The position numbers and the translations under genes are program-made. The notes under the pieces were generated by a model. It made no database searches. It was given only the letters and a program-made list of their open reading frames with translations, and was not told where the DNA came from. Positions 15,979 to 40,593 of a DNA stretch of 40,847 nt are shown piece by piece (position 1 is the stretch's first letter; every line of letters starts with the position of its first letter). The stretch comes from Caldilineae bacterium (GTDB taxonomy: Bacteria > Chloroflexota > Anaerolineae > DTLA01). The DNA lies in NCBI GenBank assembly GCA_037446815.1, contig JBBIHX010000010.1, forward strand, positions 1 through 40,847, written 5' to 3'.

Positions 15979-15993
15979 CTGTGGGAATCCGCC

Positions 15994-18971: not shown

Positions 18972-18998
18972 CGTCGGTTTGACCCCATTATCCCCTGG

Positions 18999-19030
18999 CC
19001 CCCTCTTCCCCGCTGGTAGGGAAGAGGGGG
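18999..19030 (+). terminator. Perfect 12-bp hairpin after acsE (REP-like or terminator)
   Basis: CCCCCTCTTCCC-cgctggta-GGGAAGAGGGGG. Confidence 0.6.
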
Positions 19031-19128
19031 AGCGTTGGGTGCGAGAGCGGGTGGGGCGGGTACGAGGGTCGTTGACGCGCCGCGCCGCTTCTGCTAGCCT
19101 TGCCTCAAACAGACCCGGAGGGAATGCG

Positions 19129-20789: not shown

Positions 20790-20800
20790 GGCGAGGATAG

Positions 20801-21679: not shown

Positions 21680-21694
21680 CGGGCTGTCGCCAAC

Positions 21695-22053: not shown

Positions 22054-22107
22054 CGAAGGAATGGGCGGGCGGCGTTGCGGCTGCCTTACGCCACGAAGGA
22101 GGTGCCG

Positions 22108-23769: not shown

Positions 23770-23822
23770 GTGGTCTGGAGACCCGCATGGATTCAAACCA
23801 ATTTCACGAAAGGAGTAGAACC

Positions 23823-24902: not shown

Positions 24903-24919
24903 TGGGGCTTCTGAGAACA

Positions 24920-24954
24920 CGGTGGCCGGCGGGCGCGATGTTCGCCGGCCACCG
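24920..24954 (+). terminator. Hairpin after the ulaG-like gene
   Basis: CGGTGGCCGGCGGGC / GTTCGCCGGCCACCG, 15-bp stem, no U-tract. Confidence 0.5.
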
Positions 24955-24993
24955 GCGCGCGGGTTGTCTGTTGGGGGAAGGTGGCGGAAGCGC

Positions 24994-27264
24994 ATGGAGC
25001 GGATGAAGCCGGGCGTTCTGGCGGACCTCTCCGAGTCGGGAGAGGCGCGGTACCGCATCCTGTTTGAAGCGGCTGCCGAAGCGATCTTGCTGCAGAGTCG
25101 GGATGGTGTCATCCTGGACTGCAACGCGTCGGCGTGCGAGATTTTCGCCTGTTCGCGAGACGAACTCATCGGGGCGAACGTGTGCGATCTCGTTGCCCCG
25201 GAGGTTGCGCAGCCCGCCCGCCGCCTGGTGCGCGATGCGCTGCAATCGGGGGCGGCCTCGCTCACGTTTGTCTGCAGGCGGCGGTCGGGTGTGGCGTTCC
25301 CAGCCGAGGTAACGCTGCGGCGCGTGCTTTTGGAGGGAGAGCCGCACCTGGTGGCGTGCGTTCGGGATGCCACGGAGCGCAAGTGGGCCGAGGATAAGAT
25401 TCGCCGCGACGAGCGCTTTCTCAAGGCGGTGTTTGACGGGATTCAGGACGGCATCAGTGTGCTGGACAAGGACCTGAACATCGTGCGGGTGAACCAGGCG
25501 ATGGAGAGATGGTACGCGCACATGACGCCGCTGACGGGCAAGAAGTGTTTCCACGCGTACCATGGCCGTTCGGCGCCGTGCGTGGTCTGCCCGACGATTC
25601 GCGCAATGGAGACGGCTTCGCCCCAGATGAACGAGGTGCCGCTGACCGGCGCGAATGGCGTATGGGGCTGGCTGGAGGTGTACGCGTTCCCCATGATGGG
25701 GGACGACGGCACGCCCATCGGCGCCATTGAGTACGTGCGCGACATCACCGAGCGCAAGCGCGCCGAAGATAAAATCCGGCACGATGAGTGGTTCCTGCAA
25801 GCGGTGTTTGACGGAATCCAGGATGGCATTAGCGTTCTGGATACAAACATGCGCATCGTGCGCGTGAACAACGCGATGGAGCAATGGTACGCCCATGCCA
25901 TGCCGGTTGTGGGCAAGAAGTGCTTTGAGGCCTATCATCTGCGGAGCGAGCCGTGCATCATCTGTCCGACGCGGCGCGCCATGGAGAAAGGCACGCCGCA
26001 GATGGATGAGATTCCTCTGACCGGGCCGAGGGGCGTTGAGGGGTGGCTGGAACTCTACGCCTTCCCGATGTACGATGACAACGGCGCGTGCATCGGCGTG
26101 ATTGAGTACGTCCGCAACGTTACGAAGCGGCGCGAAGCCGAGGAGGCGCTCCGCAAGTCCCGCCAGTTGCTGGAAAAGACCTTCGCGAGCCTGCGCGACG
26201 CGGCATTCATCCTGGACCTGGACATGCGGATTCTGGACTGCAACCCGGCGGCCACGGAGATTTTCGGGTACGCGCGCGAGGAGATGCTGACCCGTGAGAT
26301 TGGCTTGCTGCATGTGGACCGGGCGGCGATGGAGGAGTTCAACAGCCATCTGCGCGACTCGGTGGCCCAGAGGGGGTTTCTGTTCCTGCCGGAATTCCAA
26401 ATGCGGCACAAGAACGGGCGGATCTTCGTAACCGAGCATAATGTGATGCCACTGGAAGACGAGCAGCACCAGCGCATTGGCTGGGTGGCCCTTATCCGCG
26501 ACATCACGGAGCGCAAGCGCATGGAGCAGTACATGCTGCGCACGGAACGGCTGGCGGCGATGGGGCGGCTCGCCGCGGCCCTGGCTCACGAGATCAACAA
26601 CCCGCTCCAGGGCATCGGCAACAGCCTAGAACTGGTGCTGGATTTCCCGCTGGGGCCCGAGGAGCGGCAGGAGTACCTGCTCGCGGTGCGGCGGGAGATA
26701 GAGCGGCTCATGGCGCTGACGGACCGCGTGCTGGACTTTGCGCGACCCCCGCAGATTGAGCGGCGGCCCACGCTCGTTCAATCCATCGTTCGCCATGCGC
26801 TGGATTTGGCGGCGAATCAGTTGCAGCAGCAGCGCATCGCGGTTACCCTGGACCTTCCCGCCGACCTGCCGCCGGTGATGGCGTCCGAGGATCATCTGTC
26901 GCAGGTGTTCCTGAACCTGATTATCAATGCCATTGAAGCCATGCCCGGAGGCGGTTCGCTGGACATTGCGGCGCGCGTGTGCGAGGGGCAGATGGAGTTG
27001 GCCTTCTCGGACACGGGCTTAGGGCTGGCTCCTGAGGCGATGTCCATGATCTTTGAGCCGTTCTACACGACCAAGGAGGATGGCACCGGCCTCGGCTTGG
27101 CGATCAGCCACAGCATCATCCAACAACATGGCGGTTCTATCACTGCACGGAACGCGCCCGGCGGAGGGGCCACATTTGTCGTGTCGCTTCCGCTGGCTTC
27201 CGGAGTTCGCGAAGAGTCGCAGGAGGTGGACATTGCCGGACCCTGCCTATCCGCCGATTCCTGA
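24994..27264 (+). CDS. Cytoplasmic sensor histidine kinase with four PAS domains
   Basis: Repeated PAS/PAC ends (RD.TERK); H-box LAHEINNPL; N-box QVFLNLIINA; DTGLG; FEPFYTTK; GTGLGL; no TM segment. Start approximate. Confidence 0.92.
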   Translation: MERMKPGVLADLSESGEARYRILFEAAAEAILLQSRDGVILDCNASACEIFACSRDELIGANVCDLVAPEVAQPARRLVRDALQSGAASLTFVCRRRSGVAFPAEVTLRRVLLEGEPHLVACVRDATERKWAEDKIRRDERFLKAVFDGIQDGISVLDKDLNIVRVNQAMERWYAHMTPLTGKKCFHAYHGRSAPCVVCPTIRAMETASPQMNEVPLTGANGVWGWLEVYAFPMMGDDGTPIGAIEYVRDITERKRAEDKIRHDEWFLQAVFDGIQDGISVLDTNMRIVRVNNAMEQWYAHAMPVVGKKCFEAYHLRSEPCIICPTRRAMEKGTPQMDEIPLTGPRGVEGWLELYAFPMYDDNGACIGVIEYVRNVTKRREAEEALRKSRQLLEKTFASLRDAAFILDLDMRILDCNPAATEIFGYAREEMLTREIGLLHVDRAAMEEFNSHLRDSVAQRGFLFLPEFQMRHKNGRIFVTEHNVMPLEDEQHQRIGWVALIRDITERKRMEQYMLRTERLAAMGRLAAALAHEINNPLQGIGNSLELVLDFPLGPEERQEYLLAVRREIERLMALTDRVLDFARPPQIERRPTLVQSIVRHALDLAANQLQQQRIAVTLDLPADLPPVMASEDHLSQVFLNLIINAIEAMPGGGSLDIAARVCEGQMELAFSDTGLGLAPEAMSMIFEPFYTTKEDGTGLGLAISHSIIQQHGGSITARNAPGGGATFVVSLPLASGVREESQEVDIAGPCLSADS

Positions 27265-28057
27265 GGCCCGCGTCCTGGTGGTGGACGATGAGGCCACGCC
27301 CCGCATGGCGATCACGCGGGCGCTGAACCTCATGGGCTACAAGGCTGATGCCGCGGCGTCGGGCACGCAGGCCCTGGAGCGGCTCGCGGCGACCCCCTAT
27401 GACCTGGTGCTGCTGGACCTGCGCATGCCTGGGCTGGATGGCGTGGAAGTCATGAAGCGCGTGCGCGAGAATTATCCGAACACGCTGATTATTATCCTCA
27501 CCGCCCACGCGACGCTGGAAAGCGCGGTGGTTGCCGTCAAGGCGGGCGCGACCGACTATTTGCTGAAGCCGTGCAGCATCCGCGAGATCGGCGAAGCGGT
27601 GGCCCGCGCCTTGCGGCAGCGCCACGAACAGTTGCGGCGCCAACACCTGATTCGGGTGATGGCCGACGCGCTGTCTGCGCTGCAAGAGGAGGAGAAGACC
27701 GCCAGTCAGCCGCCCGATGTCGGCGTGGAACGGTTCATCCGGGCCGGCAACCTGACGTTGGACCAGACCAAGGGGCTGCTGCTGGTGGGCGCGACGGATA
27801 GCAGGGAGGCCCGCACTGTCCCGCTCACGGGCAACGAGATGGCCCTCATGCTGCAGTTGATGCGCAACCCGGACACGGTGTTCTCTTGCCAGCGACTGGC
27901 GAAAACGGCCCTGGGCTACGATGTGTCGGAGCAGGAGGCGGCCGAGATTATCCGGCCGCACATTTCGCGCCTTCGGCGCAAGGTGGAGCCGAACCCGGCG
28001 AAGCCTCGTCTGATTCGCACCATTCGCGGCAAGGGCTATCTGTACTCGCCATCGTAG
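27233..28057 (+). CDS. OmpR-family response regulator (REC plus winged helix)
   Basis: VLVVDDE, LLDLRMPGLDG, ILTA, DYLLKP; C-terminal HISRLRRKVE.NP..P.LIRTIRGKGY; TTG start after AGGAGG overlapping the kinase end. Confidence 0.9.
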   Translation: MPDPAYPPIPEARVLVVDDEATPRMAITRALNLMGYKADAAASGTQALERLAATPYDLVLLDLRMPGLDGVEVMKRVRENYPNTLIIILTAHATLESAVVAVKAGATDYLLKPCSIREIGEAVARALRQRHEQLRRQHLIRVMADALSALQEEEKTASQPPDVGVERFIRAGNLTLDQTKGLLLVGATDSREARTVPLTGNEMALMLQLMRNPDTVFSCQRLAKTALGYDVSEQEAAEIIRPHISRLRRKVEPNPAKPRLIRTIRGKGYLYSPS

Positions 28058-28292: not shown

Positions 28293-28847
28293 ATGGCGAA
28301 GAAGAAGCGGATTGTCTACACCAACCACCCGTGGGAGGCGACGGGGATTTGCAGCGGATGCCACCTGTGCGAGTTGTACTGCTCCCTGCAGCACACCGGC
28401 GCGTTCAATCCCTACCGCGCGCGCATTCGCGTTGCCGAGTTGTCTACCGGGGTGGATGTGCCGGTTACCTGCCAGCAGTGCCAGGATCCGGCGTGTCAGT
28501 CGGCGTGCAAGTTTGACGCGATCGTGCTGAATAAGAAACTGCAAATCGTCGTCGTGGACGAGGAGAAGTGCACCTCCTGTGGGGCGTGCGTGGGGGCATG
28601 TCCCTACGGCATCATCACCCTGGATCCGGTAACGCGCAAGGCGATCAAGTGCGACTTGTGCGGCGGCGAGTCCCCGGCTTGTGTAGACATCTGTCCGTCG
28701 CATGTGCTGGGCGCGCTGGACGATGAAGAGGTTTCGGAACACAACCGCCTGCGCTTTGCGGCGTTGCTGGCTGCCAGCGATGAGTTGCGCCGCGTTACCC
28801 CCACCGGCGAGGGGCCCGTTCTGAAGAGACTGGAGAAGAGGGGTTAG
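28293..28847 (+). CDS. 4x[4Fe-4S] electron-transfer subunit (HydN/CooF/AorA-like)
   Basis: CSGCHLCELYC, CQQCQDPAC..AC, CTSCGACVGACP, KCDLC...PACV..CP. Confidence 0.92.
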   Translation: MAKKKRIVYTNHPWEATGICSGCHLCELYCSLQHTGAFNPYRARIRVAELSTGVDVPVTCQQCQDPACQSACKFDAIVLNKKLQIVVVDEEKCTSCGACVGACPYGIITLDPVTRKAIKCDLCGGESPACVDICPSHVLGALDDEEVSEHNRLRFAALLAASDELRRVTPTGEGPVLKRLEKRG

Positions 28848-28852
28848 GCATC

Positions 28853-30808
28853 ATGGCGAAGAAGAACTCGTATGCAGGCAAGATACTGCGCGTGGACTTG
28901 AGCACGGGCGCCATCACGACCGAGGAACTGGGCTCCGAGTACACGGATCGGTTTCTCGGCGGCCGCGGCATCGCCTCCAAGATCCTGTACGAGGAGGTCC
29001 CGCCGGAGGTGGAGCCTTTTGACCCCGGCAATCGGCTCATCTTCTCGCCAGGCGCGCTCATCGGTACGGGCGTACCGGCGGCAAGCCGCACGACGGTGGC
29101 GGCGCGGTCGCCCCTGACCAACATGCACGGCGATGGGCATTCTGGCGCGTCGTGGGGGGCGGAACTGAAACGCGCCGGCTACGATGTGCTGATTTTCCAG
29201 GGCAGGGCCGAGAAGCCGGTATACTTGTACATTGACAACGACACGGTTGAGATTCGGGACGCGGCCTTCATGCGCGGCTGGTTCACGTCGGGCGTACACA
29301 GTTGGGCGCGCAAGACCTTCGGCCCAGACGTGTGCACCGTGTGCATCGGCCCGGCGGGTGAGAACCTGGTGCGGCTGGCGGGCGTGTACCACAACGGCGC
29401 GGATAAGGGTGTGAGCGCCCGGTGTGGCCTGGGCGCCGTGATGGGCTCCAAGAACCTGAAGGCGATTGTAACGCGGGGCACGGGCGACATCGGCGTGGCC
29501 GACATCGCCGCGCTCAAGGCGGCGTACAAGGATTACCTGGACACCATCGCCGCGGATCCCTATGTCGCGCCGGCAACCAAGTACGGCACGTGCCGCTTCA
29601 TGGGCCACCGCGTGAAGTTTGGCATCCACGGCGCGGAGAACTGGCGGTACGGCGCGTATCATTGGGAGACCCTGGACCCCGAGATTTTCCGCACGGATTA
29701 TCAGGTGAAGGCGGGGGCGTGCCTGGCGTGCCCGGTGCGCTGCCGCCGAGACTACCGGGTGCGCACGGGCCCCTACGCAGGGGTTACAGCCAAACTGGAG
29801 TGGGAGACCATCGCGCGCTCCATGACCTGCGGTGTTACCAACCCCGAAGCGGTCATCGCCTGGTCCAATCAGTGCAACCAGTATGGCTTGGATACCGAGG
29901 GCGCCGGCGATACGATTGCCTTCGCCATGGAATGCTTTGAGAACGGCATTCTCACCACGAAGGAGACGGAGGGCCTGCGGCTGGAGTTTGGAAACGAGGC
30001 GGCCTGGCTGGAGATGACTCGGCGCATCGCCCTGCGCCAAGGCGAACTGGCCGACATCCTCGCCGAGGGCACCAAGCGGGCTTCGGCCAAGATCGGGCGA
30101 GGCAGCGAGCGGTTCGCTATGCATGTGAAGGGCGGCGAGATGACGGCAGGCGACCCGCGAGGGATGCCCGTTCGCGCGGTCTCCTATGCCACATCTACAC
30201 GCGGGAGCGATCACCTGCGCTCCAACCCGTACATTGAGGAGATCATGCGGCCGGAGGAGGCGCTCCAGTGGTTCGGCACGGAGGAAGCCGCAGACATCAA
30301 GCACGGCGTGCGCGGCAAGGGCAAAATGCTGAAGTTCAGCGAGGATTTGGTTACCATCGGCGACATCCTTGGCCTGTGCAAGTTCGCCTACTACCGCTCG
30401 GCGACGTTCCCGTACCTGTATCGCAAGGGCGTGCACCTGGCCACGCGGTTCTACAATGCCTGCACGGGGCGCAACCTGAGCGAAGAGGATATGCTCATGG
30501 CAGGGGAGCGCACGTTCAACGTGGAGAAGGGGTACAACACACGGTGCGGCGCTACCCGTGCCGACGATGTTATCCCACGCCGCTTCTTTGAGGAGCCGCT
30601 GCTGGGCGGCGGGCCGAGCGGCGGCGCCGTCGTGGACCTGGAAAAGTTTGACGCGATTCTGGACGAGTACTACGAGGACCGGCGGTGGGATCCGGACACG
30701 GGGCTGCCGACGCGGGCGGGGCTGGAGCGCCTGGGCCTGCACGACATCGCCGACGACCTGGAAGCCCGCGGGAAGTTGCCGGTATCCGATTGTGGCAAGG
30801 TTGAGTGA
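28853..30808 (+). CDS. aor: Aldehyde:ferredoxin oxidoreductase family (W/Mo-bis-pterin)
   Basis: GKILRVDLS, LGGRG, SPLT, IGPAGEN, GLGAVMGSKNLKAI, CLACPVRC, EWET, GLDT, DPR, RGSDH, GLCKF, YYE.R.WD..GLPT. Confidence 0.92.
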   Translation: MAKKNSYAGKILRVDLSTGAITTEELGSEYTDRFLGGRGIASKILYEEVPPEVEPFDPGNRLIFSPGALIGTGVPAASRTTVAARSPLTNMHGDGHSGASWGAELKRAGYDVLIFQGRAEKPVYLYIDNDTVEIRDAAFMRGWFTSGVHSWARKTFGPDVCTVCIGPAGENLVRLAGVYHNGADKGVSARCGLGAVMGSKNLKAIVTRGTGDIGVADIAALKAAYKDYLDTIAADPYVAPATKYGTCRFMGHRVKFGIHGAENWRYGAYHWETLDPEIFRTDYQVKAGACLACPVRCRRDYRVRTGPYAGVTAKLEWETIARSMTCGVTNPEAVIAWSNQCNQYGLDTEGAGDTIAFAMECFENGILTTKETEGLRLEFGNEAAWLEMTRRIALRQGELADILAEGTKRASAKIGRGSERFAMHVKGGEMTAGDPRGMPVRAVSYATSTRGSDHLRSNPYIEEIMRPEEALQWFGTEEAADIKHGVRGKGKMLKFSEDLVTIGDILGLCKFAYYRSATFPYLYRKGVHLATRFYNACTGRNLSEEDMLMAGERTFNVEKGYNTRCGATRADDVIPRRFFEEPLLGGGPSGGAVVDLEKFDAILDEYYEDRRWDPDTGLPTRAGLERLGLHDIADDLEARGKLPVSDCGKVE

Positions 30809-30821
30809 GCGACGGGTAGCC

Positions 30822-31112
30822 GTGAACGTGTGGGTTCATCTGTATCCGCCGCTGAACAATGTGGCGGGCTGCGATCGGGTGCAGATTGCGCTGGAAGCGC
30901 CGGCCACGGTGGGTGACGTGCTGGATGCCCTGGTGGCGCAGTACGGTGCGGATATGCGGCGCTACCTGCGCGATGAGAGCGGGCGCGTGGTGCCGGCGTG
31001 GACGGCCTTTGTGAACGACACGCCGGTGCAGTTGAACCGCGACGAGGCGCTGGGCATCCCGGTGGATGATGGGGATGAAATCGCGCTGATTCTCAACCTG
31101 GCCGGAGGATAG
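30822..31112 (+). CDS. MoaD/ThiS-family sulfur carrier
   Basis: TV.D.L.AL...Y, FVN, DGDEIAL..LAGG with C-terminal Gly-Gly; typical AOR neighbour; GTG start. Confidence 0.85.
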   Translation: MNVWVHLYPPLNNVAGCDRVQIALEAPATVGDVLDALVAQYGADMRRYLRDESGRVVPAWTAFVNDTPVQLNRDEALGIPVDDGDEIALILNLAGG

Positions 31113-31171
31113 CAGATTCACAACATTGCCAAAGCGCGCCGCGGACGGTGCGCGATGAAAGGAGACGGACA

Positions 31172-32464
31172 ATGGCGGTCATCCATGTTCCTTATGGCGT
31201 GAAGGGTATTCTGGACCTGGAAGTTCCGGACAAGAACCTTGTTCTGAACACCGACGTGCCATTCCCCGGCGAGATGCCGAACCTCAACGATGCCATTCTG
31301 GCCGCGCTGGAGAACCCGGTGGCAGGCCCGCCGTTCTCCGAGCGACTCCGCAAGGCGAAGCGGGTCGTTATCCTGGTGGACAACTTCGCCCGTCTGACCC
31401 CCGCGCACAAACTCTTGCCGCCGATTCTGGAGAAGATCCAGCAGGCGGGCAAGTATGTAGAAATCCTCATCGCCAGTGGCGCGCTCCGCGAAATGAGCGA
31501 GACCGAACTGGAGCGCAAACTGGGCAAGGAAATCCTCAACTCCGGGATTCCGATTGTCGTCAGCAAGGCCCGCGAGACATGGGACTTTGAGTTCGTGGGC
31601 GTTACCAGTTACGGGTCGCCCATCAGCGTGCACAAGCGATTCCTGGCGGCGGACTTCCGGCTGGCGGTAACGATGACGCAGGCCACCCTGTGGGGGTACG
31701 GCGGCGGGGGGAGCATGATCCTGCCGGGCGTGAGTTCCTTTGAGACGATTGAGTGGCATCACCGGCTGATGACCTCACCCACGATGAAGGTGGGCTACGA
31801 GCCGCCGCTGAACCGCTTCCGCGAGGACATTGAGGAGGCTATGGCACTGGCGCGGCTGGACATGTCGCTGCTGGCCATCTTCAACCCCAAGATGGAACTG
31901 ATAGACCTGACGGCGGGCGATACCCTGGCCGCGCACCGTGCCTCGGTGAAGAAGTACAACGCCCGCTACGCCTTTGACCCGGGCAAGATTCCCGGCGGCG
32001 CGCTGGACGTGGGTATCAGCGGGTCGTTCCCGGGGGACCGCTTCTTCGCCCACGCGTGCTGGCCCATCGCCAACCTGGACCCGTTCGTGCGCGATGGCGG
32101 CACCATCATCGTGGCGACGCCGGTGCCGGGCGGGCTGGCGCATTATGCCTACGCCAAGGACTACATGCCGCCGACGAAGGAAGCCATGCGCCGCCTGTAC
32201 GACGATGTTTTCTACGGCAAGCAGGCCCTCTGGCATGCCTGCCTGTGGCTGCCGGTCATTGAGGTCATGGCGCGCAAGGAGGTCATCGTCGTAACGGAGC
32301 CGGAACGCCTGCCCGACTTTGAAATCGTGAAGATACCGGCGGTTACATCGCTGCAAGAGGCTTTTGAGCGCGTCAAGGATAAGTACGGGCCGAACATGAA
32401 GGTTGGCCACTTCCCCTACGGCAAGTGGATTGTTACCGGCAGGGGCGCGGATGGGAAACTCTAG
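31172..32464 (+). CDS. Divergent LarA (lactate racemase / DUF2088) family protein
   Basis: PYG, AL.NP...P, VILVD...R.TP, G.T.YG.P..V, GY.GG..MILPG.S..ETI..H, N..REDI.E, GG.II. Several catalytic residues are substituted (see findings). Confidence 0.8.
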   Translation: MAVIHVPYGVKGILDLEVPDKNLVLNTDVPFPGEMPNLNDAILAALENPVAGPPFSERLRKAKRVVILVDNFARLTPAHKLLPPILEKIQQAGKYVEILIASGALREMSETELERKLGKEILNSGIPIVVSKARETWDFEFVGVTSYGSPISVHKRFLAADFRLAVTMTQATLWGYGGGGSMILPGVSSFETIEWHHRLMTSPTMKVGYEPPLNRFREDIEEAMALARLDMSLLAIFNPKMELIDLTAGDTLAAHRASVKKYNARYAFDPGKIPGGALDVGISGSFPGDRFFAHACWPIANLDPFVRDGGTIIVATPVPGGLAHYAYAKDYMPPTKEAMRRLYDDVFYGKQALWHACLWLPVIEVMARKEVIVVTEPERLPDFEIVKIPAVTSLQEAFERVKDKYGPNMKVGHFPYGKWIVTGRGADGKL

Positions 32465-32509
32465 CGGGGCCGCGATACCGCGCGGTTCCGCGCTCGGTGA
32501 GGGAGTGTG

Positions 32510-33400
32510 ATGAGACTTCGGTTTGATGCCAAAGTCATGGGGCTGCTGGAAGGGGCCATAGACTTGCATATTCATTCGGCCCCTGACGTGTACCCCCGCA
32601 TCTTGAACGATGTGGAATTGGCCCTGCAGGCCAAGGAAATGGGCATGCGGGCTATCCTCGTCAAGAACCATTTCGTGGAGACGGCGAGCAGGGCGCAGGT
32701 GGCGTCGGAAGTTGCGGACTTCGCCGTGTTCGGGGGCATCGCGCTGAACCTGACGGTGGGGGGACTCAATGCCCATGCGGTGGACGTGGCGCTGAAACTG
32801 GGCGCGAAGGTGGTGTGGATGCCCACGCTCCACGCGCAGGCGTTCCTTGCGAACAAGAGCCACGTGGCAAACCTGGCGGCCCAGTTGGGGGAGGATATTC
32901 AGGGTATCTATATCCTGAAGCCGAACGGCGAACTGAAGGACGAGGTCTATCCGATTCTGGACTTGATCGCCAAGTGGGATGTGATGCTGGCGACGGGGCA
33001 CATCACCATCCAGGAGGCCATGGCGCTCGTGCGGGCGGCGGCAGAGCGGGGTGTGCGCAAGATCGTTGTAACGCACCCATGCGCCAGTTTCGTGAACTAC
33101 AGCGTGGACGACATGAAGGCGATTCTGGACGCGGGGGCCACATACTTGGAGCACGTGTACAACGACACGACGCGCCAGGTGGCTCATCCCATCAAGGTGA
33201 CCGACCTGTATAACGCCATCAGGGCTATCGGGCCGGAGCACTGCATCATGTCCACCGACTCGGGGCAGTGGCTCAATCCGATTCCGGCGCAGCAGATGGG
33301 GATTTACATAACGGATATGCTGAAACTCGGCCTATCGGAGCGGGAGATTCGCACCATGGTGGCCGATAACCCGGCGCGGGCGCTGGGCATCTACATCTAG
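32510..33400 (+). CDS. Amidohydrolase-fold metalloprotein (DUF6282-like)
   Basis: GAIDLHIHSAPD..PR, GMRAILVKNH, GG.ALN..VGGLN, VWMPT, LATGH, THP, STDSGQ, NPARAL. Confidence 0.8.
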   Translation: MRLRFDAKVMGLLEGAIDLHIHSAPDVYPRILNDVELALQAKEMGMRAILVKNHFVETASRAQVASEVADFAVFGGIALNLTVGGLNAHAVDVALKLGAKVVWMPTLHAQAFLANKSHVANLAAQLGEDIQGIYILKPNGELKDEVYPILDLIAKWDVMLATGHITIQEAMALVRAAAERGVRKIVVTHPCASFVNYSVDDMKAILDAGATYLEHVYNDTTRQVAHPIKVTDLYNAIRAIGPEHCIMSTDSGQWLNPIPAQQMGIYITDMLKLGLSEREIRTMVADNPARALGIYI

Positions 33401-33430
33401 CCGGGGAGATTTCCAAAACGAGGGAAGGAT

Positions 33431-34324
33431 ATGGCAAAGGTTGGATTCATCGGTTTGGGACAGATGGGCAAGTGGATGGCCCTGAACGTCCTCAAGGCAG
33501 GATTTGACCTGACCGTGTACGACATCAGCGAGGCGGCTGTGCGGGCGCTGACGGAGGCCGGGGCGAAGGCGGCGCCATCGCCCAAGGACGTGGCCGCCCA
33601 GGTGGATTGGGTGTTCCTCAGCCTGCCCAATACCCAGGTGGTGGAAAGCGTGCTCTTCGGCCCGAACGGGATTGCCGAAGGGGCGAAGCCTGGGTTGATA
33701 GTTGTGGATTTGAGCACCATCGGCTATATGGCGACGTTGGGCTTCGCCGAGCGTCTCGCGGGGCAGGGCGTGGTGTTCGTGGATGCGCCGGTGTCGGGCA
33801 TGGAGGCGCGGGCGAAGGACGGCACGCTGACCGTGATGTTCGGCGGTGATGAGGCGGTTTTTCAGACGGTGTATCCGGTGTTCCAGGCCATTGGGAATAC
33901 CATCATTCACATGGGCAAGATCGGCAGTGGCCAGTTGACCAAACTCATCAACCAGTTGCTGTTCAACACGGCGTGCGCGGCCATGGCCGAGATCCTGCCC
34001 ATGGCGGTGAAATTGGGCCTGGATCCGGAGAAGATCGCGCAGGTCATCGTAACGGGGACGGGCCGCAGTTTCGCCGTGGAGTTTTTCACGCCGCGCATCC
34101 TGGAGAACAAGTTTGACGAGGGGTACCCGCTGAAGCACGCCTACAAGGATATGGTCAGCGCGGCGGAAATCAGCGCGCACCAGAAGATTCCGCTCCCCAT
34201 GGTGCAGGCTGCAACCACCACCTACCAGATGGCGCTCGCGCAGGGACTTGGGGATGAGGACAAGGGCGCCATGATCAAGGTCTTTGAGCGCATCTTGGGC
34301 GTGGAATTCCGGAAGAAGGGGTAG
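33431..34324 (+). CDS. NAD-dependent beta-hydroxyacid dehydrogenase (GarR/HIBADH/Hgd family)
   Basis: [38 protein letters not shown] (catalytic Lys), KD. Confidence 0.9.
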
Positions 34325-34328
34325 CGCC

Positions 34329-35981
34329 ATGTCGGAACATCGGGGCCGACCGGAAGAGATCACAGAGGCCTACTACCGCGGGCTGATGCACGCGGTGGGC
34401 TACCGCAAGCAGGACCTGGACAAGCCGCAGATCGCGGTGGTGAACTCGTGGACGGATGTCAACCCGGGCCACGTGCCGCTCAAGGACCTCGCCCAGCGAG
34501 TGAAAGAGGGCATCTGGGCGGCGGGCGGCTCGCCCGGGGAGTTCAACGTGCCCGCGCCGTGCGACGGGATGGCGCAGGGGCCGGGGCAGCATTTCATCCT
34601 GCCGCAGCGCGACCTCATCGCAGGTTCCATTGAGGCGATGGTGCGCGCCCACGGGTTCCAGGGCATGGTGATGCTGGCGTCGTGCGACAAGATTATCCCC
34701 GGCATGGTGATGGCCGCCATCCGCCTGAATATCCCGACGCTGTTCCTAACGGCGGGGGCCATGATGCCGTACCGCATGGGCAATCGCACGGTCGTTACGT
34801 CTGACCTGAAGGAGGCTATCGGCAAGCGGCGAACGGGCGAGATAGACGACGCCACCTTTGAGGATTGGCAAGAGCATTTCTGCGCGTCGTGCGGCACTTG
34901 CTCCATGATGGGCACCGCCAACACCATGGGGTGTTTCCTCGAGGCGACGGGCCTCGCGCCGTTCGGTTCGGCGACCATGCTGACGTTTGACGCGGCGAAG
35001 TGGCGTCAGGCGCGAGATGTGGGCGAGCGCATCGTGGCCCTGGTGCGCGAGCGCCGACCCTTCGGGGAGTTCTTCAACCGCGCCAGTCTGGAGAACGGCA
35101 TCAAGTATATCTCGGCGTCGGGCGGGTCCACCAATGCGATTCTGCACACGCTGGCGTTCGCGTCGCTGATGGGCGCTGACCTGGACTTGGCGGCCTTTGA
35201 CCGCTTGCAAGCCTCGGTGCCGCTGGTGGCGAAGTTCAAGCCGTCGGCGCAGTACAACATGGACGACTACCACGCGGCAGGCGGGGTGCGCGCTCTGCTG
35301 GGCGTCATCCGCGACTGGCTGGATCTGAGCGTGCCGATGGCGATGGGCGGGACGCTGGGCGAGTCGCTGCGGGCTGCGCCGGGGCCCGATGGCGTGGTGA
35401 TTCGGTCGGCGTCGGAGCCGCTGGCGCCCGATGGCTGCTTCGGGATCCTGCGGGGGAATCTGGCCCCGCTGGGGTCTGTGGTCAAGAAGAGCGGGGTGGA
35501 GCCCAGCATGCTGGTGCACCGAGGCCCCGCGGTGGTCTTTGACTCCGAGGAAGATGTGCGCGAGTTCATGCTGACGAAAGAGGTGCGCCCTGGGTCGGTG
35601 CTCGTGGTGCGGTACGAGGGGCCGAAGGGCGGCCCGGGGATGCGGGAACTGTCCATCCCGGCGGCCATGCTCGTGGGGATGGGGTTGCACACGTCGGTGG
35701 CGATGATTACCGATGGCCGCTTCTCGGGCGCGACGCGGGGCCCGTGCGTGGGGCACATCTGCCCGGAGGCGTGGGACGGCGGGCCTCTGGGGTATGTGCG
35801 CGATGGCGACATGATAGAAATCAACGTGCCCGAAAGCCGGCTGAACCTGATGATTCCGGATGAGGAATTGCGCGACCGGCAGAAGTTGCCGCCGGCAAAG
35901 CCGAATCATCCGGCTCCGGGTGTGCTGGCTGCGTACCGCGAGCGGGTGCGCGGCGCGGAAGTGGGCGCGGTGTGGTTGTAG
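34329..35981 (+). CDS. IlvD/Edd-family dihydroxy-acid or sugar-acid dehydratase (second paralog)
   Basis: [59 protein letters not shown]. Confidence 0.9.
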
Positions 35982-36100
35982 CGTGCGGCAGTGCGGTTGG
36001 GAGTTCATGATGAGGAGGGAGGTGATAGGATTTCACGTAGTGTCAGGCTGAATCGGCAACTTGGACAAGGATTATTCAAGCGAAAGGAAGGTGACAAGGT

Positions 36101-36997
36101 ATGTCTGGAGGCGAGTTCTATCGCGCAAGCAGTGTGCAAGAAGCCCTAGACCTGCTCGCCAAGTTCGGGGCCAAGGCCCACGTGCTGGCCGGCGGCACCG
36201 ACATTATGGTGAAAGTCAACCGCCGTCAACTTGCACCAGAGGTCCTCGTGTACATTGGCGAGTGTGGTCTGAACTACATCAAGGACATGGGGGACAAAGT
36301 GGTTATCGGAGGCGCGACCCCCTTCGCGGAGATTCTCCGGTCTCCCGTTGTGAAGCAGAAACTGCCGCTGCTGGCGGAGGCCGTCGCGCACATTGGAACC
36401 CCCGCGATTCGGAATGTGGGCACCATCGGCGGCAACCTGGTAACGGCATCGCCCGCGGCAGACTCCTCGGTGCCTCTCCTGGCGCTGGGCGCGTCGGTGA
36501 AACTGGCGTCCAAGTCCGGCGAGCGCGTCGTGCCGCTGGAGTCCTTCTTCAAGGGTCCAGGCGAGACCGTTCGCAAGCCCGATGAGTTGCTGGTGGAGGT
36601 CATCATCCCCGTGCCCGACAAGGACGTGAAGTTTGCTTACCACAAGATCGGGCGGAGGAAGGCGGGCACGCTGTCGGTGGTAGCGGGCGCTGTGGTGTTC
36701 AAGGCCGAGGGTGCAGCGCCGCGCGGGACGGCTATTGCGCGCGACCAGGCTTGCTACTTTGAGAAGTGCACCCAGGCGCGCATCGTGCTGAACGCTGTCG
36801 CCCCAACGCCCCTTCTCGCGAAGAAGGCATCGGCTCTGCTGGAAGGGAGCGCCTTGGATGCCGAACTGATCGCCAAAATCGCCAAAACCGCTGCCGAGGA
36901 GACCTCGCCCATTGACGACGTGCGCGCCTCTGCGTGGTACCGGCGCCAGGCCAGCGAGGGGCTTGTCAAGAGCCTCCTTGAGCGGATTGTAGCGTAG
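36101..36997 (+). CDS. Mo-hydroxylase FAD-binding subunit (NdhF/CoxM-like)
   Basis: LAGGTD, IRNVGTIGGNL.TASPAADS, PIDDVRASAWYR. Confidence 0.92.
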   Translation: MSGGEFYRASSVQEALDLLAKFGAKAHVLAGGTDIMVKVNRRQLAPEVLVYIGECGLNYIKDMGDKVVIGGATPFAEILRSPVVKQKLPLLAEAVAHIGTPAIRNVGTIGGNLVTASPAADSSVPLLALGASVKLASKSGERVVPLESFFKGPGETVRKPDELLVEVIIPVPDKDVKFAYHKIGRRKAGTLSVVAGAVVFKAEGAAPRGTAIARDQACYFEKCTQARIVLNAVAPTPLLAKKASALLEGSALDAELIAKIAKTAAEETSPIDDVRASAWYRRQASEGLVKSLLERIVA

Positions 36998-37012
36998 AAA
37001 GGGGTGGCTTCC

Positions 37013-37477
37013 ATGTACACACTGGAACTGAAAGTGAACGGTCGGGCATACAAGGTAGAGGTGAAGGCCACGACGACTCTGCTGCAGGTGCTGCGGGAGA
37101 AGTTGGGCATCACCGGCCCGAAGGTCGGCTGCGAGACGGGCGATTGCGGCGCGTGCTCGGTCTTGGTGAACGGCAAGTTGGTCAAGGCCTGCATCACCAA
37201 CGCGCTCACCGTGCACGGCAAAGAGGTGCTGACGGTTGAAGGGCTTGGGCGACCTGGGGCGTTCCATCCGTTGCAGTTGGCATTCCATGAGCATTACGCA
37301 GCCCAGTGCGGTTTCTGCACGCCGGGGATGCTGATGGCAGCCAAGGCGCTCCTGGACGAGAATCCGAAGCCGACCCGCGATGAGGTGAGAGAGGCCCTGT
37401 CCGGTAACCTCTGCCGCTGCACGGGCTACGTCAAGATCGTGGATGCCATCATGGCCGCAGCGGGCGAGAAGGCCTAG
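37013..37477 (+). CDS. Mo-hydroxylase 2x[2Fe-2S] subunit (NdhS/CoxS-like)
   Basis: GCETGDCGACSV..AC, QCGFCTPG, GNLCRCTGY. Confidence 0.93.
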   Translation: MYTLELKVNGRAYKVEVKATTTLLQVLREKLGITGPKVGCETGDCGACSVLVNGKLVKACITNALTVHGKEVLTVEGLGRPGAFHPLQLAFHEHYAAQCGFCTPGMLMAAKALLDENPKPTRDEVREALSGNLCRCTGYVKIVDAIMAAAGEKA

Positions 37478-37492
37478 AAAGGAGAGGATCCA

Positions 37493-38797
37493 ATGGCGCT
37501 GAATGTAGTTGGACAAAGAGTGAAGCGGTACGACGGCCTGGCTCACGTAGCGGGCGAGACGCGCTTCGTGGATGATGTCATCGTACCGGGTACGCTGGTT
37601 GTCAAGGGCCTCCGCAGCCCGGTGCCAAAGGGCAAAATCAAGGGGCTGGACGTTAGCGCGGCGGAGAAGGTCCCGGGCGTGGTGGCCGTCATGACCCACA
37701 AGGATGTCCCCAATAACCGCTACGGGTGGGGCGGCGACCAGTACGTGCTTGCCGAAGACCACGTGCGGTACAAAGGCGAGTTGATCGCCGTTGTGGCGGC
37801 AGAGGATGAGGATGCGGCCCTGGAAGCCGTGGACAAGATGAAGTTGACCATTGAGGAAGAGGAGCCGGTGTTTGATCCGCTGGAGGCGATGAAACCCGGC
37901 GCGCCGAAGGTACGGCCCGAGGGCAACATCTTCATGTACGGCGATAGCCCGTGCCGCAAGATCATCTTCGGCGACATCAACGAGGGGTTCAAGAAGGCCG
38001 ACATCATCGTGGAGGGCAAGTACCACCACCAAGGCCTGAAGCACGCGCAGATGGAGCCCCACGTATCGTTGGCGGTGCCCGAGGCCACGGGCCGGCTGAC
38101 GATCTACACCGTCAGCCAGGCGATGTACTTCCACCTGACCTGGGTATGCAACATCGTTGGGCTTCCCATGAGCAAGGTGCGGATGATCGGCGGCACCGTT
38201 GGCGGCGGGTTTGGCTCCAAGAACGACGTGCACGCCGACCACATTACGGCGCTCCTGGCGCTGAAGACCGGCCGGCCGGTGAAGTGGCGGTGGACGCGCG
38301 AGGAGGACCTGTTGTTCTCCACCTTCCGCGGCTCCTGGGATATGGAGTTCAAGGACGGCGTAACCCGGGATGGACGACTCGTTGCCCGCCGGGTGAAGAG
38401 CATCCGCGACTCCGGCGCGTACACCTCGCTGAACGCCTACGTGGTGGACAAGCACTGCTTCCTCGTGGCGGGGCCTTACTTCATCCCCAACGTCTACGTG
38501 GAAGGGTACTGCGTGTACACGAACAAGCCGCCCGCCAGTTCCATGCGCGGGTTCGGCATCACGCCGGCCACCTACGCGGGCGAGATGCAGATGAACAAGA
38601 TCGCCGAGGCGCTGGGCATGGATCCGTGGGAACTGCGTTTCAAGAACGCGTTCCGCGAGGGCGAGATGACGGCGACGCAGCGTGTGCTGGATTCGGTTGC
38701 GCTGATTGAGACGATGCAGGCGCTGGCCGGACTGGTGGGCAAGGCCCTGCCGCCTCACTTGAAGGCGATGACCTCAACGCAGAAGAGGGAGGGGTAG
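37493..38797 (+). CDS. Mo-hydroxylase molybdopterin subunit, N-terminal half (NdhL-like)
   Basis: HAQMEP, SQ, VGGGFGSK, GRPVK...TREE, GAY, GPY, SMRGFG, ALGMDP.ELR..N; ends at 434 aa. Confidence 0.9.
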   Translation: MALNVVGQRVKRYDGLAHVAGETRFVDDVIVPGTLVVKGLRSPVPKGKIKGLDVSAAEKVPGVVAVMTHKDVPNNRYGWGGDQYVLAEDHVRYKGELIAVVAAEDEDAALEAVDKMKLTIEEEEPVFDPLEAMKPGAPKVRPEGNIFMYGDSPCRKIIFGDINEGFKKADIIVEGKYHHQGLKHAQMEPHVSLAVPEATGRLTIYTVSQAMYFHLTWVCNIVGLPMSKVRMIGGTVGGGFGSKNDVHADHITALLALKTGRPVKWRWTREEDLLFSTFRGSWDMEFKDGVTRDGRLVARRVKSIRDSGAYTSLNAYVVDKHCFLVAGPYFIPNVYVEGYCVYTNKPPASSMRGFGITPATYAGEMQMNKIAEALGMDPWELRFKNAFREGEMTATQRVLDSVALIETMQALAGLVGKALPPHLKAMTSTQKREG

Positions 38798-38799
38798 AG

Positions 38800-39792
38800 A
38801 TGAAGAAGAGAGGAGTTGGACTGGCTGTTGGGCTCTATCCTACCGGCATGAGCGGCGGCGGCGACTCCAGCCAGGCAGTGGTGAAGGTGAAACCCGATGG
38901 CAGCGTGGACCTCATCCTGACCTCGGTGGACATCGGCCAGGGCTGCAAGACGGTGCTGGCGCAGATTGCCGCGGAGGAACTCGGCGTGCCCTACGACCGA
39001 GTGGATGTGGTGAACGATGACACGGACACCGGCCCGCTGTGCTTCGGCACTTTTGCCAGCCGCGTTACCTTCGTAGCCGGCAACGCCACGAAAGAGGCGG
39101 CCCGAGAGGCGAAGCAGATTCTGTTCAGCGTGGCTGCGGACAAACTGGAAGCGTCGCCGGATGACCTGGAAGCGGCGAATGGCAAGATTTACGTGAAGGG
39201 CGCGCCCGAGCGTTCGGTGGACATCGGAGCGATTGCCGGCGAAGCCACGTTTGGCCTGCGCAAGGTCATCGTGGGCCGCGGGCACTACATGCGCACGCCT
39301 TCGGCTCCCGACCCGGCCACCGGCAAGACGGACCCGTTCGCCACGCTGGCGTGGGCAGCCGTGCAGGCCGAGGTGGAGGTTGACACGGATACCGGCGAGG
39401 TTACGGTGCTTCGCCTGGACTGCGCCTACGACGTGGGCCGGGCAGTGAACCCACTGCTGCTGGAGGGGCAGATTGAAGGCGGCGCGGGCATGGGCGTGGG
39501 GGCGGCTCTGATGGAGCAACTGTACCCCTACAAGTCGCCCGTCAAGTTCCCGGCCGAGACCTTCGGCGACTACGTGATCCCCACTGCGGTGGACGTTCCG
39601 GATATCCGCACGGTCATCTACGAATGCCCGTCCACCAATGGGCCTTTCGGCGCGAAGGGCATCGGCGAGATGACGGCGAACGCGCCGAGCCCGGCGATCG
39701 TGGCTGCGATCCACGATGCTATCGGCGTCTGGATTGACGAACTGCCGATAACGCCGGAGAAGGTGCTGCGCGCCCTGCAGGCGAAGGGCTAG
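38800..39792 (+). CDS. Mo-hydroxylase molybdopterin subunit, C-terminal half (NdhM-like)
   Basis: MKKRG.G start, DIGQG..T..AQIAAEELG, GTFASR, DVGRAVNP..EGQIEGG, GPFGAKGIGE (catalytic Glu), LPITPEKV. Confidence 0.9.
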   Translation: MKKRGVGLAVGLYPTGMSGGGDSSQAVVKVKPDGSVDLILTSVDIGQGCKTVLAQIAAEELGVPYDRVDVVNDDTDTGPLCFGTFASRVTFVAGNATKEAAREAKQILFSVAADKLEASPDDLEAANGKIYVKGAPERSVDIGAIAGEATFGLRKVIVGRGHYMRTPSAPDPATGKTDPFATLAWAAVQAEVEVDTDTGEVTVLRLDCAYDVGRAVNPLLLEGQIEGGAGMGVGAALMEQLYPYKSPVKFPAETFGDYVIPTAVDVPDIRTVIYECPSTNGPFGAKGIGEMTANAPSPAIVAAIHDAIGVWIDELPITPEKVLRALQAKG

Positions 39793-39803
39793 ACCACGAC
39801 AGG

Positions 39804-39839
39804 CCATCGGGGGTCTGACGCGTGTTGGGCCCCCGATGG
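39804..39839 (+). terminator. Hairpin after the Mo-hydroxylase genes
   Basis: CCATCGGGGGTCTGAC / GTTGGGCCCCCGATGG, 16-bp stem with G-U pairs. Confidence 0.5.
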
Positions 39840-40077
39840 GACAAAGCCCGGAAGTTGCTTCAACCAAGGGCGGCGTATAACGGGCAACTTTTCCAACGTT
39901 AGAAACTTTTCCATCGGTTCGGTGTTACGGAGAGTAGACAGAAACCACAGGGTTCGGGTGCGCGGTGGCCAAAGGGAGAGGCGGCTGTGCAGGCGGTGAA
40001 AGCCACGGGGCCAAGTCGCTCGGGTGATCCAAATCGTTCGGTATCCGACTGATTGAAACTGTGAGGAGGGAAAACAG

Positions 40078-40593
40078 ATGGGTCCGATTATCCTGCTTCT
40101 GGCGGCGTTCATTTTCATAGTGGACGCGGCGTTCCTGTTCGGTAAGGCTGACCCGAAGGGCACCGGCGTTGCGAACGTGGCTGTAGGCGTCATCATGAAC
40201 GCCTGCGGGCTTCAACTCGGGTTCACGGCCGGTGGCAACTCGTTCCTCATGATCCTGTGCGGCCTGACCATGGCCTTCAGCCTGTTCTACATCATCCTGG
40301 GGTGGTGCTTGCTGGCTGGCTACGATCTGAAGGCGCTGGGATGGGCCTGCCTGGGCGCGGCGCTGTTCACGCTCCTGTCGGCGGTCTTCTTCTTCGGCCT
40401 GGGCACCACGGGGAACACGATTCTGGGTGTCTTCGCGTTGACCTGGGCCACGCTGTTCGCGACGGCTTGGCTGAACCTGTCGTTCGGGACCAAGTGGGCG
40501 GGCGTGCTGGTCAAGTGGATTCTGGTGGTGGACTCGCTGATTACGCTCATGATCCCCGCCTACCTTCTCATCACGGGTGGCTGGCCCGCCTAG
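40078..40593 (+). CDS. AmiS/UreI-family amide/urea channel
   Basis: 171 aa with about six TM helices; N-terminal LL......D...L.GK.DPK...V.N..VG, F.L.Y, DLKALGW.C, W..L..W pattern; strong RBS GAGGAGGG. Confidence 0.75.
   Translation: MGPIILLLAAFIFIVDAAFLFGKADPKGTGVANVAVGVIMNACGLQLGFTAGGNSFLMILCGLTMAFSLFYIILGWCLLAGYDLKALGWACLGAALFTLLSAVFFFGLGTTGNTILGVFALTWATLFATAWLNLSFGTKWAGVLVKWILVVDSLITLMIPAYLLITGGWPA

Follow-up and report, generated by a model that had tools for sequence, protein, structure and literature searches.

An eleven-gene operon shared almost unchanged by unrelated uncultured anaerobes, possibly for organic-acid catabolism

The DNA described here (the window) is the whole of contig C10 (JBBIHX010000010.1; 40,847 bp) from the genome bin of a Caldilineae bacterium (GCA_037446815.1; 3.19 Mb in 265 contigs, 93.6% complete), and our subject is an operon of eleven co-directional genes at positions 28293-39792. 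The window has a G+C content of about 64%, its nearest public relatives carry the labels of Anaerolineae or Chloroflexota metagenome-assembled genomes (MAGs), and all of the genes taken as real lie on the + strand. Gene starts were inferred and domains were assigned with Pfam and NCBIfam, which gave the following genes, listed with the short names used below:

28293..28847, + strand: electron-transfer subunit, AorA/YdhY-like, 184 aa (Fer4 protein; Pfam Fer4_11 and related families)
28853..30808, + strand: tungsten-type aldehyde:ferredoxin oxidoreductase (AOR) family protein, 651 aa (AFOR_N 235 bits, AFOR_C 359 bits)
30822..31112, + strand: MoaD/ThiS-like small protein, about 96 aa from an inferred GTG start (ThiS match in Pfam)
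31172..32464, + strand: atypical LarA homolog, 430 aa from ATG (438 aa from the GTG at 31148; Pfam Lar_N only)
32510..33400, + strand: DUF6282 metal-dependent hydrolase of the amidohydrolase superfamily, 296 aa (PF19799, 227 bits)
33431..34324, + strand: NAD-type beta-hydroxyacid dehydrogenase of the HIBADH family, 297 aa (NAD_binding_2, NAD_binding_11)
34329..35981, + strand: paralog of the IlvD/EDD-family Fe-S dehydratases (IlvD2), 550 aa (ILVD_EDD_N, ILVD_EDD_C)
36101..36997, + strand: molybdenum (Mo) hydroxylase FAD subunit (F), 298 aa (FAD_binding_5, CO_deh_flav_C)
37013..37477, + strand: Mo hydroxylase subunit with two [2Fe-2S] clusters (S), 154 aa (Fer2, Fer2_2)
37493..38797, + strand: split molybdopterin subunit, large part (Mo-L), 434 aa (Ald_Xan_dh_C, MoCoBD_1)
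38800..39792, + strand: split molybdopterin subunit, medium part (Mo-M), 330 aa (MoCoBD_2)

The gaps between these genes are, in gene order, 5, 13, 59, 45, 30, 4, 119, 15, 15 and 2 bp, and a consensus scan found no promoter-like or terminator-like site between any of them. A first-pass annotation of this DNA had described eleven tightly spaced co-directional genes with these domains, which the Pfam and NCBIfam matches and the short gaps bear out, and the F-S-L-M order, the split Mo subunit and the subunit sizes of 298, 154, 434 and 330 aa that it gave also agree with the Pfam matches and the translations.

Loci for comparison were collected with a profile of DUF6282 relatives, searched against one genome per prokaryote species; this gave 240 confirmed relatives, the best 80 of which were retained together with as much as 10 kb of flank on either side, and all of the window proteins were compared with these 80 loci by tblastn (locus L001 is the window itself). 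DUF6282 was present at 60% identity or more in 49 of the 80 loci, and the complete series, running from the Fer4 protein, AOR, MoaD-like protein and LarA homolog through DUF6282, HIBADH and IlvD2 to F, S, L and M, was found in the same order and orientation in eight of them, six of which lie outside the genus of the window (labelled Desulfobacterales, Chloroflexota, Thermodesulfobacteriota, Desulfobacteraceae (two) and Desulfarculales). Further loci are nearly full, three of them reaching a contig end (L034, L036 and L040) and three having one member lost or degraded (L011, L014 and L052), and the same gene order recurs in Desulfobacterales, Desulfarculales, Syntrophobacteraceae and other Chloroflexota MAGs. 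Protein identities across lineages were 51-81% by tblastn, lowest in the FAD subunit, with the MoaD-like protein at 42-58%. The locus from another Chloroflexota lineage (L013) resembles the window no more closely than those from Desulfobacterales do, so the set has passed between phyla. Such an arrangement goes far beyond chance, and the eleven-gene operon is genuine and nearly unchanged in unrelated uncultured anaerobes; the co-occurrence in other genomes supports the earlier proposal of a conserved, undescribed catabolic gene set. Among the best 120 DUF6282 and best 120 LarA-homolog database matches the source was a metagenome or MAG wherever an organism was named, and no cultured organism was named; DUF6282 was not mentioned in the literature searched.

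The first three genes look like a bacterial aldehyde oxidoreductase operon. The Fer4 protein has four cysteine motifs in its translation, of the pattern CxxC-(2 to 7 residues)-CxxxC, and is 65-77% identical to its syntenic orthologs, while the AOR, whose orthologs in other phyla are 69-78% identical, has full-length AFOR_N and AFOR_C domains and a poly-ferredoxin partner, as members of its family do. Against solved structures the AOR scored highest with that of P. furiosus (1AOR, 328 bits) and with other AORs (321-323 bits), followed by AorB of Aromatoleum (8C0Z, 272 bits), and it reached 214 bits, with part of the protein covered, against BamB (4Z3W). The suggestion that this enzyme might dearomatise a ring as BamB does therefore found no support, since it is nearer to the P. 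furiosus enzyme. The MoaD-like protein ends in LAGG, a Gly-Gly terminus, and has NCBIfam matches to SAMP1 and to archaeal MoaD, both below cut-off. The module shares a Fer4 subunit, an AOR catalytic subunit and a MoaD-like gene within one operon with the AorAB(C) tungsten aldehyde oxidoreductases (Aromatoleum aromaticum; E. coli YdhV/YdhY), but differs from them in lacking an adjoining FAD subunit (AorC) and in being part of a larger catabolic operon.

The LarA homolog is unusual in its active site. A profile of 15 members of its clade was aligned with L. plantarum LarA (residues numbered from the GTG at 31148), and this showed that both catalytic histidines are replaced (His108 by Leu113 and His174 by Thr180), as is the lysine that links the cofactor NPN, a nickel-pincer nucleotide (Lys184 by Ser189), and that the nickel ligand His200 (His205) and Arg75 (Arg82) are retained. 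The same replacements were seen in all 27 syntenic orthologs, and a distant canonical LarA in L066 has both histidines and the lysine. Of 120 database homologs, 111 have the motif around position 113 and 117 that around position 180; of the 12 missing either motif, 11 were inspected by eye and show no histidine where one would align, and the other (P0229), having no anchor motif, was left out of this reading. In the accepted mechanism these two histidines serve as the acid/base pair (PMC12611868), and in the portions available of two publications the atypical LarA groups have His174 alone absent or replaced, or were themselves set aside as non-conserved (PMC12611868; PMC7583248). Having lost both acid/base histidines, the window homolog is predicted to be unable to act as a conventional racemase. 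It belongs with the LarA superfamily of NPN-dependent 2-hydroxyacid racemases and epimerases, with the malate/tartrate racemase Mar2 as its nearest member, in having Lar_N, the nickel-binding histidine and Arg75, and in that LarC and LarE are encoded in the genome, but it differs in having Leu, Thr and Ser in place of the two histidines and Lys184; its C-terminal domain is not recognised by Pfam. Five COG numbers, which we take to be those of AOR, HIBADH and the Mo-hydroxylase subunits, were sought in a published table of LarA gene contexts. None of the five stands beside a LarA group in that table, where one group lists COG0129 (dihydroxyacid dehydratase) at 30% (Desguin 2020).

DUF6282, HIBADH and IlvD2 form a trio in the middle of the operon. 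The AlphaFold model of DUF6282 (pLDDT 93.8) is a (beta/alpha)8 barrel of the amidohydrolase type, and when compared by Foldseek and VIA-align it matches many amidohydrolases at Z 17-20 over 230-260 residues, in a tie that takes in phosphotriesterase-like lactonases, renal dipeptidases, TatD, dihydroorotases, hydantoinases, LigI and enamidase (2VUN, Z 17.0, rank 41). Seven residues are invariant in 32 family members (D19, H21, H23, H165, H190, E215 and D251), of which the HxH pair (H21, H23), H165, H190 and D251 are the probable metal ligands. The DUF6282 sequence matched no solved chain at E ≤ 1, enamidase included, and an ESM Atlas search with it returned DUF6282 clusters only; with no sequence match and a tied fold match, no enamidase ortholog was found in the operon, though DUF6282 may still play an analogous part.

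For HIBADH the best NCBIfam model is tartronate-semialdehyde reductase, below cut-off (275 bits against 397), and the best solved match is the 2-(hydroxymethyl)glutarate dehydrogenase of E. barkeri (Hgd; 3CKY, 227.5 bits). Because three other beta-hydroxyacid dehydrogenases score 214-220 bits (3W6U 219.7; 1VPD 214), this match does not discriminate, so that of the Hgd-family gene annotated here the HIBADH-family dehydrogenase stands and the specific likeness to Hgd is marginal. Of 39 locus rows other than that of the window, 38 retain the catalytic-lysine motif GSGQLTK together with an unusual SGM motif, the exception being a degraded copy in L052, and the relatives shown have SGG or TGG in place of SGM. 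IlvD2 falls short of the dihydroxyacid dehydratase models (579 bits, cut-off 644; 565 bits, cut-off 618) which the neighbouring true ilvD product, IlvD1, passes at 830 and 798 bits. The two are 40% identical, and their alignment shows that IlvD2 retains the IlvD1 motifs PCDG, CDK, GTC..TANT and TDGRFSG; in the IlvD/EDD family these regions supply the Fe-S cysteines, the CDK motif and, in TDGRFSG, the catalytic serine.

More distant DUF6282 members (40-47% identity) were seen in other carboxylate contexts (L054, L057, L059, L065, L070 and L083). The Moorella mulderi gene (L054) lies among those for an RraA-like aldolase, TctABC, Ldh_2, an M24 peptidase and a HIBADH-like protein; the Brevibacillus and Paenibacillus genes (L070 and L083) have as neighbours a metallo-beta-lactamase (MBL) fold gene, an MFS transporter, GntR and GlcD/GlcF-like oxidases. 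The L057 member is near a cyclase, a crotonase and a thiamine-pyrophosphate enzyme. L059 and L065 share a cyclase, a crotonase, BKACE and a 3-hydroxyacyl dehydrogenase, to which L059 adds a PanE-like reductase. The proximity of distant DUF6282 genes to 3-hydroxyacyl dehydrogenase and BKACE prompted us to consider a phloroglucinol route, which was rejected since the ring-opening enzyme of that route is of the 'cyclase' family in the available part of its description (PMC10470551).

The last four genes encode a Mo hydroxylase. Mo-L and Mo-M have as their best solved matches the large and medium subunits of E. barkeri nicotinate dehydrogenase (NDH), at 253 bits (3HRD_A; next entry 179) and 225 bits (3HRD_B; next entry 173) respectively. 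The catalytic glutamate of the GIGE motif, common to NDH, is kept in Mo-M. The Glu/Arg pair with which xanthine dehydrogenases (XDH) bind purines is absent from Mo-L, which has Asn244 at the place of the glutamate, where NDH has Leu, and Lys320 where NDH has Arg, so that the positive charge is retained; these are presumably the positions of Glu802 and Arg880 of bovine XDH. Both residues are kept in all 18 syntenic Mo-L orthologs. The enzyme reaches no NCBIfam equivalog cut-off; for Mo-L the highest scores, with PucD and a selenium-dependent XDH model, fall far short of the cut-offs. Nine of the 18 orthologs (L010, L014, L022, L034, L038, L039, L041, L044 and L052) have a degenerate form (for instance NAGFSAK, RTGSSAK and KTGSSGK) of the GGGFG motif that precedes a Lys-Asn-Asp triplet and is normally invariant, with the other pocket residues kept.

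Across the genome there are ten AOR-family places, five XDH-family sets and five LarA homologs. Two further contigs of this genome (G000), C68 and C164, were taken as loci L088 and L089. On C68 a canonical LarA is found together with an AOR, a cyclase, two UPF0261 genes and a class II aldolase. On C164 there is another split F-S-L-M enzyme (57% identity in L), whose neighbours are a 'cyclase'-family hydrolase and an Fe-ADH. SelD, with one in-frame TGA that is likely to be read as selenocysteine, and YqeB were located at G000:C13:14206-15138 and C117:8383-9147.

The operon proved to be modular when DUF6282 neighbours were counted in assessable loci outside the genus of the window. HIBADH adjoins DUF6282 in 33 of 43 such loci and IlvD2 does so in 29 of 40, followed by the LarA homolog (20 of 37), Mo-L (16 of 33) and AOR (14 of 31). 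Eleven loci without upper-module genes of the window type (those for the AOR module and the Mo hydroxylase) were examined, with 64 of 104 candidate open reading frames (ORFs) passed through Pfam. Tct and/or TRAP transporter genes adjoin all or part of the trio in L023, L024, L026, L045 and L049, and trio-only contexts also hold a GntR/FCD regulator (L049), a cupin, an FAH-family protein and, in L045, BKACE. Orthologs of Mo-L and of the LarA homolog are both missing from five trio-only genomes, where the highest identities are 44% and 34% respectively (syntenic Mo-L orthologs have at least 57%). This suggests that the trio may work alone on an imported carboxylate, since it stands by itself with carboxylate transporters in genomes with no Mo-L ortholog. 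A second AOR clade (41-43% identity) adjoins DUF6282 or the trio in L021, L023, L028 and L060, lying between two Fer4 genes in three of these four loci, and L037-L039 and L041 lack the AOR and hold a second FeS-L-M Mo enzyme, from which it appears that an aldehyde-oxidising enzyme has been recruited beside the trio more than once.

The flanks of the full clusters were surveyed in 14 loci, with 73 of 125 candidate ORFs passed through Pfam. Liv-type ABC transporter genes are found in four of the 14, and a three-subunit 2-oxoacid:ferredoxin oxidoreductase lies downstream of Mo-M in L011, L014 and L044, its alpha subunit scoring 540 bits against a cut-off of 411. An FAH-family protein is encoded downstream in L011, L014 and L031, being nearest by NCBIfam to the DmpE/MhpD hydratases in L011 and L031, and a small cupin gene lies between IlvD2 and the FAD subunit in L016, L034 and, weakly, L052. 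MBL-fold lactonase-like genes, a class II aldolase gene and UPF0261 kinase genes occur in some flanks too.

On either side of the operon in the window lie the following features:

24832..28057, + strand: PAS histidine kinase (24832-27264) and OmpR-type regulator (to 28057), candidate local regulators (Pfam)
39804..39839, + strand: GC-rich hairpin of 16 bp, likely operon end (RNA fold)
40078..40593, + strand: AmiS/UreI channel, judged a separate unit (PF02293)

The two-component system is directly upstream, as had been annotated. The pair is kept only in loci of the same genus (L007-L009), and in eight of 14 full-cluster loci of other lineages a GntR/FCD regulator replaces it. At the other end the hairpin starts 12 bases past the Mo-M stop codon and is strong (-39 kcal/mol; z = -3.76 against shuffles); it has no T-tail and accordingly is not among the sites given by the terminator scan. 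The consensus scan of the window says little, giving no promoter-like site and a single terminator-like site, inside amiS. The start of amiS is 285 bp after the Mo-M stop codon and AmiS was found in three of 27 assessable loci, one of 25 outside the genus (L013). Given this gap, the hairpin and the poor conservation, the AmiS/UreI gene, rightly reported downstream of the operon, is probably a neighbour and separate unit and not an operon member. About 1 kb downstream of AmiS in L013, past one unassigned ORF, there is an acetamidase/formamidase gene.

How these genes might act together was considered in the light of the intact catalytic residues in several of their products (the Cys, CDK and Ser motifs of IlvD2, the Lys of HIBADH, the Glu of Mo-M and the HxH, two His and Asp of DUF6282). 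At a probability of about 40%, we read the set as a single, horizontally shared, two-module catabolic operon of strict anaerobes for an organic (carboxylic) acid. From the gene content, synteny, modularity and active-site residues we infer a class of substrate, an order of steps and electron acceptors as follows. In the lower module DUF6282, as a metal-dependent hydrolase of the amidohydrolase fold, would open a ring or an ester or amide bond, most simply as a lactonase; HIBADH would interconvert a 3-hydroxy-acid and an aldehyde-acid with NAD; and IlvD2 would dehydrate a 2,3-dihydroxy- or 3-hydroxy-acid, yielding a 2-oxo-acid, which in other genomes the neighbouring 2-oxoacid:ferredoxin oxidoreductase and MhpD-like hydratase may carry on to an acyl-CoA. 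The upper module would be accessory, its two enzymes inserting oxygen derived from water and funnelling precursors into the lower one, with the tungsten-type AOR and its partner with four [4Fe-4S] clusters oxidising an aldehyde to an acid and passing electrons to ferredoxin, and the NDH-like F-S-L-M enzyme oxidising a C-H bond next to a heteroatom, or an aldehyde, and passing electrons through its 2Fe-2S clusters and FAD to NAD(P)+. The LarA homolog would probably catalyse a different cofactor-dependent step on an intermediate resembling a 2-hydroxy-dicarboxylate.

As substrate a hydroxy-, sugar- or aldaric-type acid or its lactone is tentatively favoured over a pyridine, because the trio appears to be self-sufficient and the chemistry of IlvD/EDD, FAH and LarA proteins fits such a compound, and because the regulators and transporters are of carboxylate type and several lactonase-like genes lie nearby. 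To our knowledge all characterised IlvD/EDD enzymes act on 2,3-dihydroxy-acids, and amidohydrolase-fold lactonases and FAH enzymes occur in non-phosphorylative sugar-acid routes. The operon and its relatives have in common with the Weimberg, Dahms and L-rhamnonate/L-fuconate-type routes, and with archaeal glyceraldehyde oxidoreductases, an amidohydrolase-superfamily lactonase, an IlvD/EDD dehydratase and an FAH-family enzyme, AOR-family or Mo enzymes that oxidise aldehydes, and TRAP/TTT uptake alongside GntR/FCD regulators. They differ from these routes in that the window has no aldolase or sugar 1-dehydrogenase of a known type, that HIBADH and an FAD-containing Mo enzyme like NDH have no assigned role there, and that every member of the operon scores below curated equivalog cut-offs.

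Several points weigh against a sugar- or hydroxy-acid operon. No aldolase was found within the window, and we know of no HIBADH-family enzyme that serves as a sugar 1-dehydrogenase. The nearest solved relative of the Mo enzyme is a pyridine hydroxylase and not an aldehyde oxidoreductase, and the genome encodes YqeB (a maturation factor) and SelD, which are markers of selenium-dependent Mo hydroxylases. The fold of DUF6282, with Z of 17-20 across both, does not separate a lactonase from a cyclic amidase, and the trio-only genomes are MAGs of unstated completeness, so that a missing ortholog is weak evidence. The UPF0261 kinases flanking some clusters hint at aromatic substrates, the sole activity known for that family in the available part of its description being the phosphorylation of phenolic aromatics (PMC12624787).

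The first-pass annotation had proposed a pyridine, and in particular a route like the fermentation of nicotinate, as the purpose of the operon. Here the NDH-like enzyme would hydroxylate a pyridine or other N-heteroaromatic carboxylate next to the nitrogen, the ring would then be reduced, perhaps by the AOR and Fer4 protein, and opened with release of ammonia by DUF6282 as an enamidase analogue, after which HIBADH would reduce a formyl-acid as Hgd does and IlvD2 would replace the Fe-S dehydratase Hmd. In E. barkeri nicotinate is fermented by means of NdhFSLM, Hnr, Ena, Hgd and Hmd, and the window has in common with that gene set a four-subunit hydroxylase with the same rare split and F-S-L-M order, which is the nearest solved relative of its own (253 and 225 bits for L and M), and an amidohydrolase-fold hydrolase, a HIBADH-family dehydrogenase and an Fe-S dehydratase encoded together, three types of chemistry in the same order as Ena, Hgd and Hmd. 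Lys320 keeps the positive charge of the NDH arginine, the lack of a glutamate at the xanthine-binding position speaks against a purine, YqeB and SelD are encoded in the genome, and resemblances to vitamin-B6 degradation were seen below threshold (FHMPC dehydrogenase, 273 bits against a cut-off of 500; 4-pyridoxolactonase, 81 against 325; and a class II aldolase). A divergent NadC/QPRTase-like gene, which also points this way, separates the 2-oxoacid oxidoreductase genes from that of the MhpD-like hydratase at one locus only (L011:18856-19671; 101 bits, cut-off 198).

However, no ring reductase is apparent, the AOR resembling other AORs (328 bits) and not BamB (214); as previously reported, no Hnr-, Ena-, Mgm- or Mii-type gene was recognised in the window, and Pfam found no other reductase-like gene within 28293-39792. 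Nor was any match to the PrpF/Mii family (PF04303), to which 3-methylitaconate isomerase belongs, found in the 93.6%-complete genome. In place of the E. barkeri enzymes the hydrolase is DUF6282, with no solved-chain match at E ≤ 1 and an enamidase fold match tied with about 40 others; the dehydratase is of the IlvD/EDD family; the likeness to Hgd is marginal and the SGG motif of Hgd differs from the SGM of the window; and a tungsten-type AOR and a LarA homolog are added. The trio occurs without the Mo enzyme, with carboxylate transporters of its own, and AmiS is not conserved. A literature search for nicotinate dehydrogenase with enamidase in anaerobes gave as its only match a report concerning Aspergillus, nor did anything relevant turn up on 6-hydroxynicotinate reductase or on 'niacini' species with nicotinate and sulfate. 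Nothing in the analysis identifies a pyridine, and a nicotinate-like substrate is a possible but not the best-supported reading. A broader form of the idea, an undescribed anaerobic route for a heteroaromatic carboxylate or aldehyde (a nicotinate analogue, or one of pyridoxal/pyridoxate or furoate type) in which a selenium-dependent NDH-like hydroxylase and a tungsten-type AOR would add oxygen from water, DUF6282 would open the ring, the IlvD paralog would be a catabolic dehydratase and the LarA homolog would use the nickel-pincer cofactor for a new reaction other than racemisation, seems to us possible but not likely.

It might also be that the AOR module with LarA, the DUF6282 trio and the Mo hydroxylase share no common pathway and are together by shared regulation or by chance. 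They do occur apart, as the trio alone, as the trio with a different AOR or as the trio with a Mo enzyme and no AOR, and the 119-bp gap before the FAD subunit is where some loci have a cupin gene inserted; yet order and orientation are kept across phyla in at least eight loci at 51-81% identity (42-58% for the MoaD-like protein), and most of the genes are separated by a few bases with no terminator-like site between them, so that mere juxtaposition is unlikely given this synteny. Breakdown of purines or urate, in which xanthine dehydrogenase and a ring amidohydrolase would be followed by tartronate-semialdehyde reductase, glycerate would be dehydrated to pyruvate and urea would leave through UreI, could draw on the best NCBIfam models of Mo-L (PucD and selenium-dependent XDH, far below cut-off) and of HIBADH (tartronate-semialdehyde reductase), and on the AmiS/UreI gene next door. 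Set against it, the xanthine-binding glutamate (presumably Glu802 in bovine numbering) is Asn in all orthologs, no glyoxylate carboligase or ureidoglycolate enzyme was found in the window or in the 14 full-cluster loci, and AmiS is a separate unit; this route is unlikely, and the least probable of those weighed here.

Farther upstream than the two-component genes, the window holds at 19830-24902 a 3-hydroxyacyl dehydrogenase, BKACE, the true ilvD and a UlaG-like MBL lactonase gene. The best NCBIfam model for the dehydrogenase is the FHMPC dehydrogenase mentioned above. L033 has a UlaG-like gene 83% identical to this one beside its cluster, in L040 the cluster is followed by a dehydrogenase gene of 69% identity, and in L045 BKACE comes after the trio. 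The genes of this region may be functionally linked to the operon. At 4833-18971 is a complete-looking Wood-Ljungdahl block (FolD, FTHFS, CODH, ACS, CBS protein, two CdhD-type subunits, RACo and a methyltransferase). It had been suggested that products of the operon might feed this pathway, but Wood-Ljungdahl genes were beside the operon in none of 77 loci outside the genus by tblastn, a RACo-like gene being present in two, which weakens the suggestion. A 121-aa ORF after the methyltransferase (18979-19344) has no family match and may be no gene, and a 1196-aa protein encoded at 203-3793 has matches to BNR/Asp-box and sortilin-like families, in sub-threshold stretches only.

Uncultured sulfate reducers, syntrophs and Anaerolineae known from metagenome assemblies commonly carry the gene set, which moves between phyla almost intact. 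The set joins four poorly understood catalysts, which are DUF6282, a LarA homolog predicted to be unable to use the known racemase mechanism, a catabolic IlvD paralog and an NDH-like split Mo enzyme. Identifying its substrate would give DUF6282 its first function, would test the chemistry of the nickel-pincer cofactor beyond racemisation and would add a route of carbon degradation to models of anoxic habitats.

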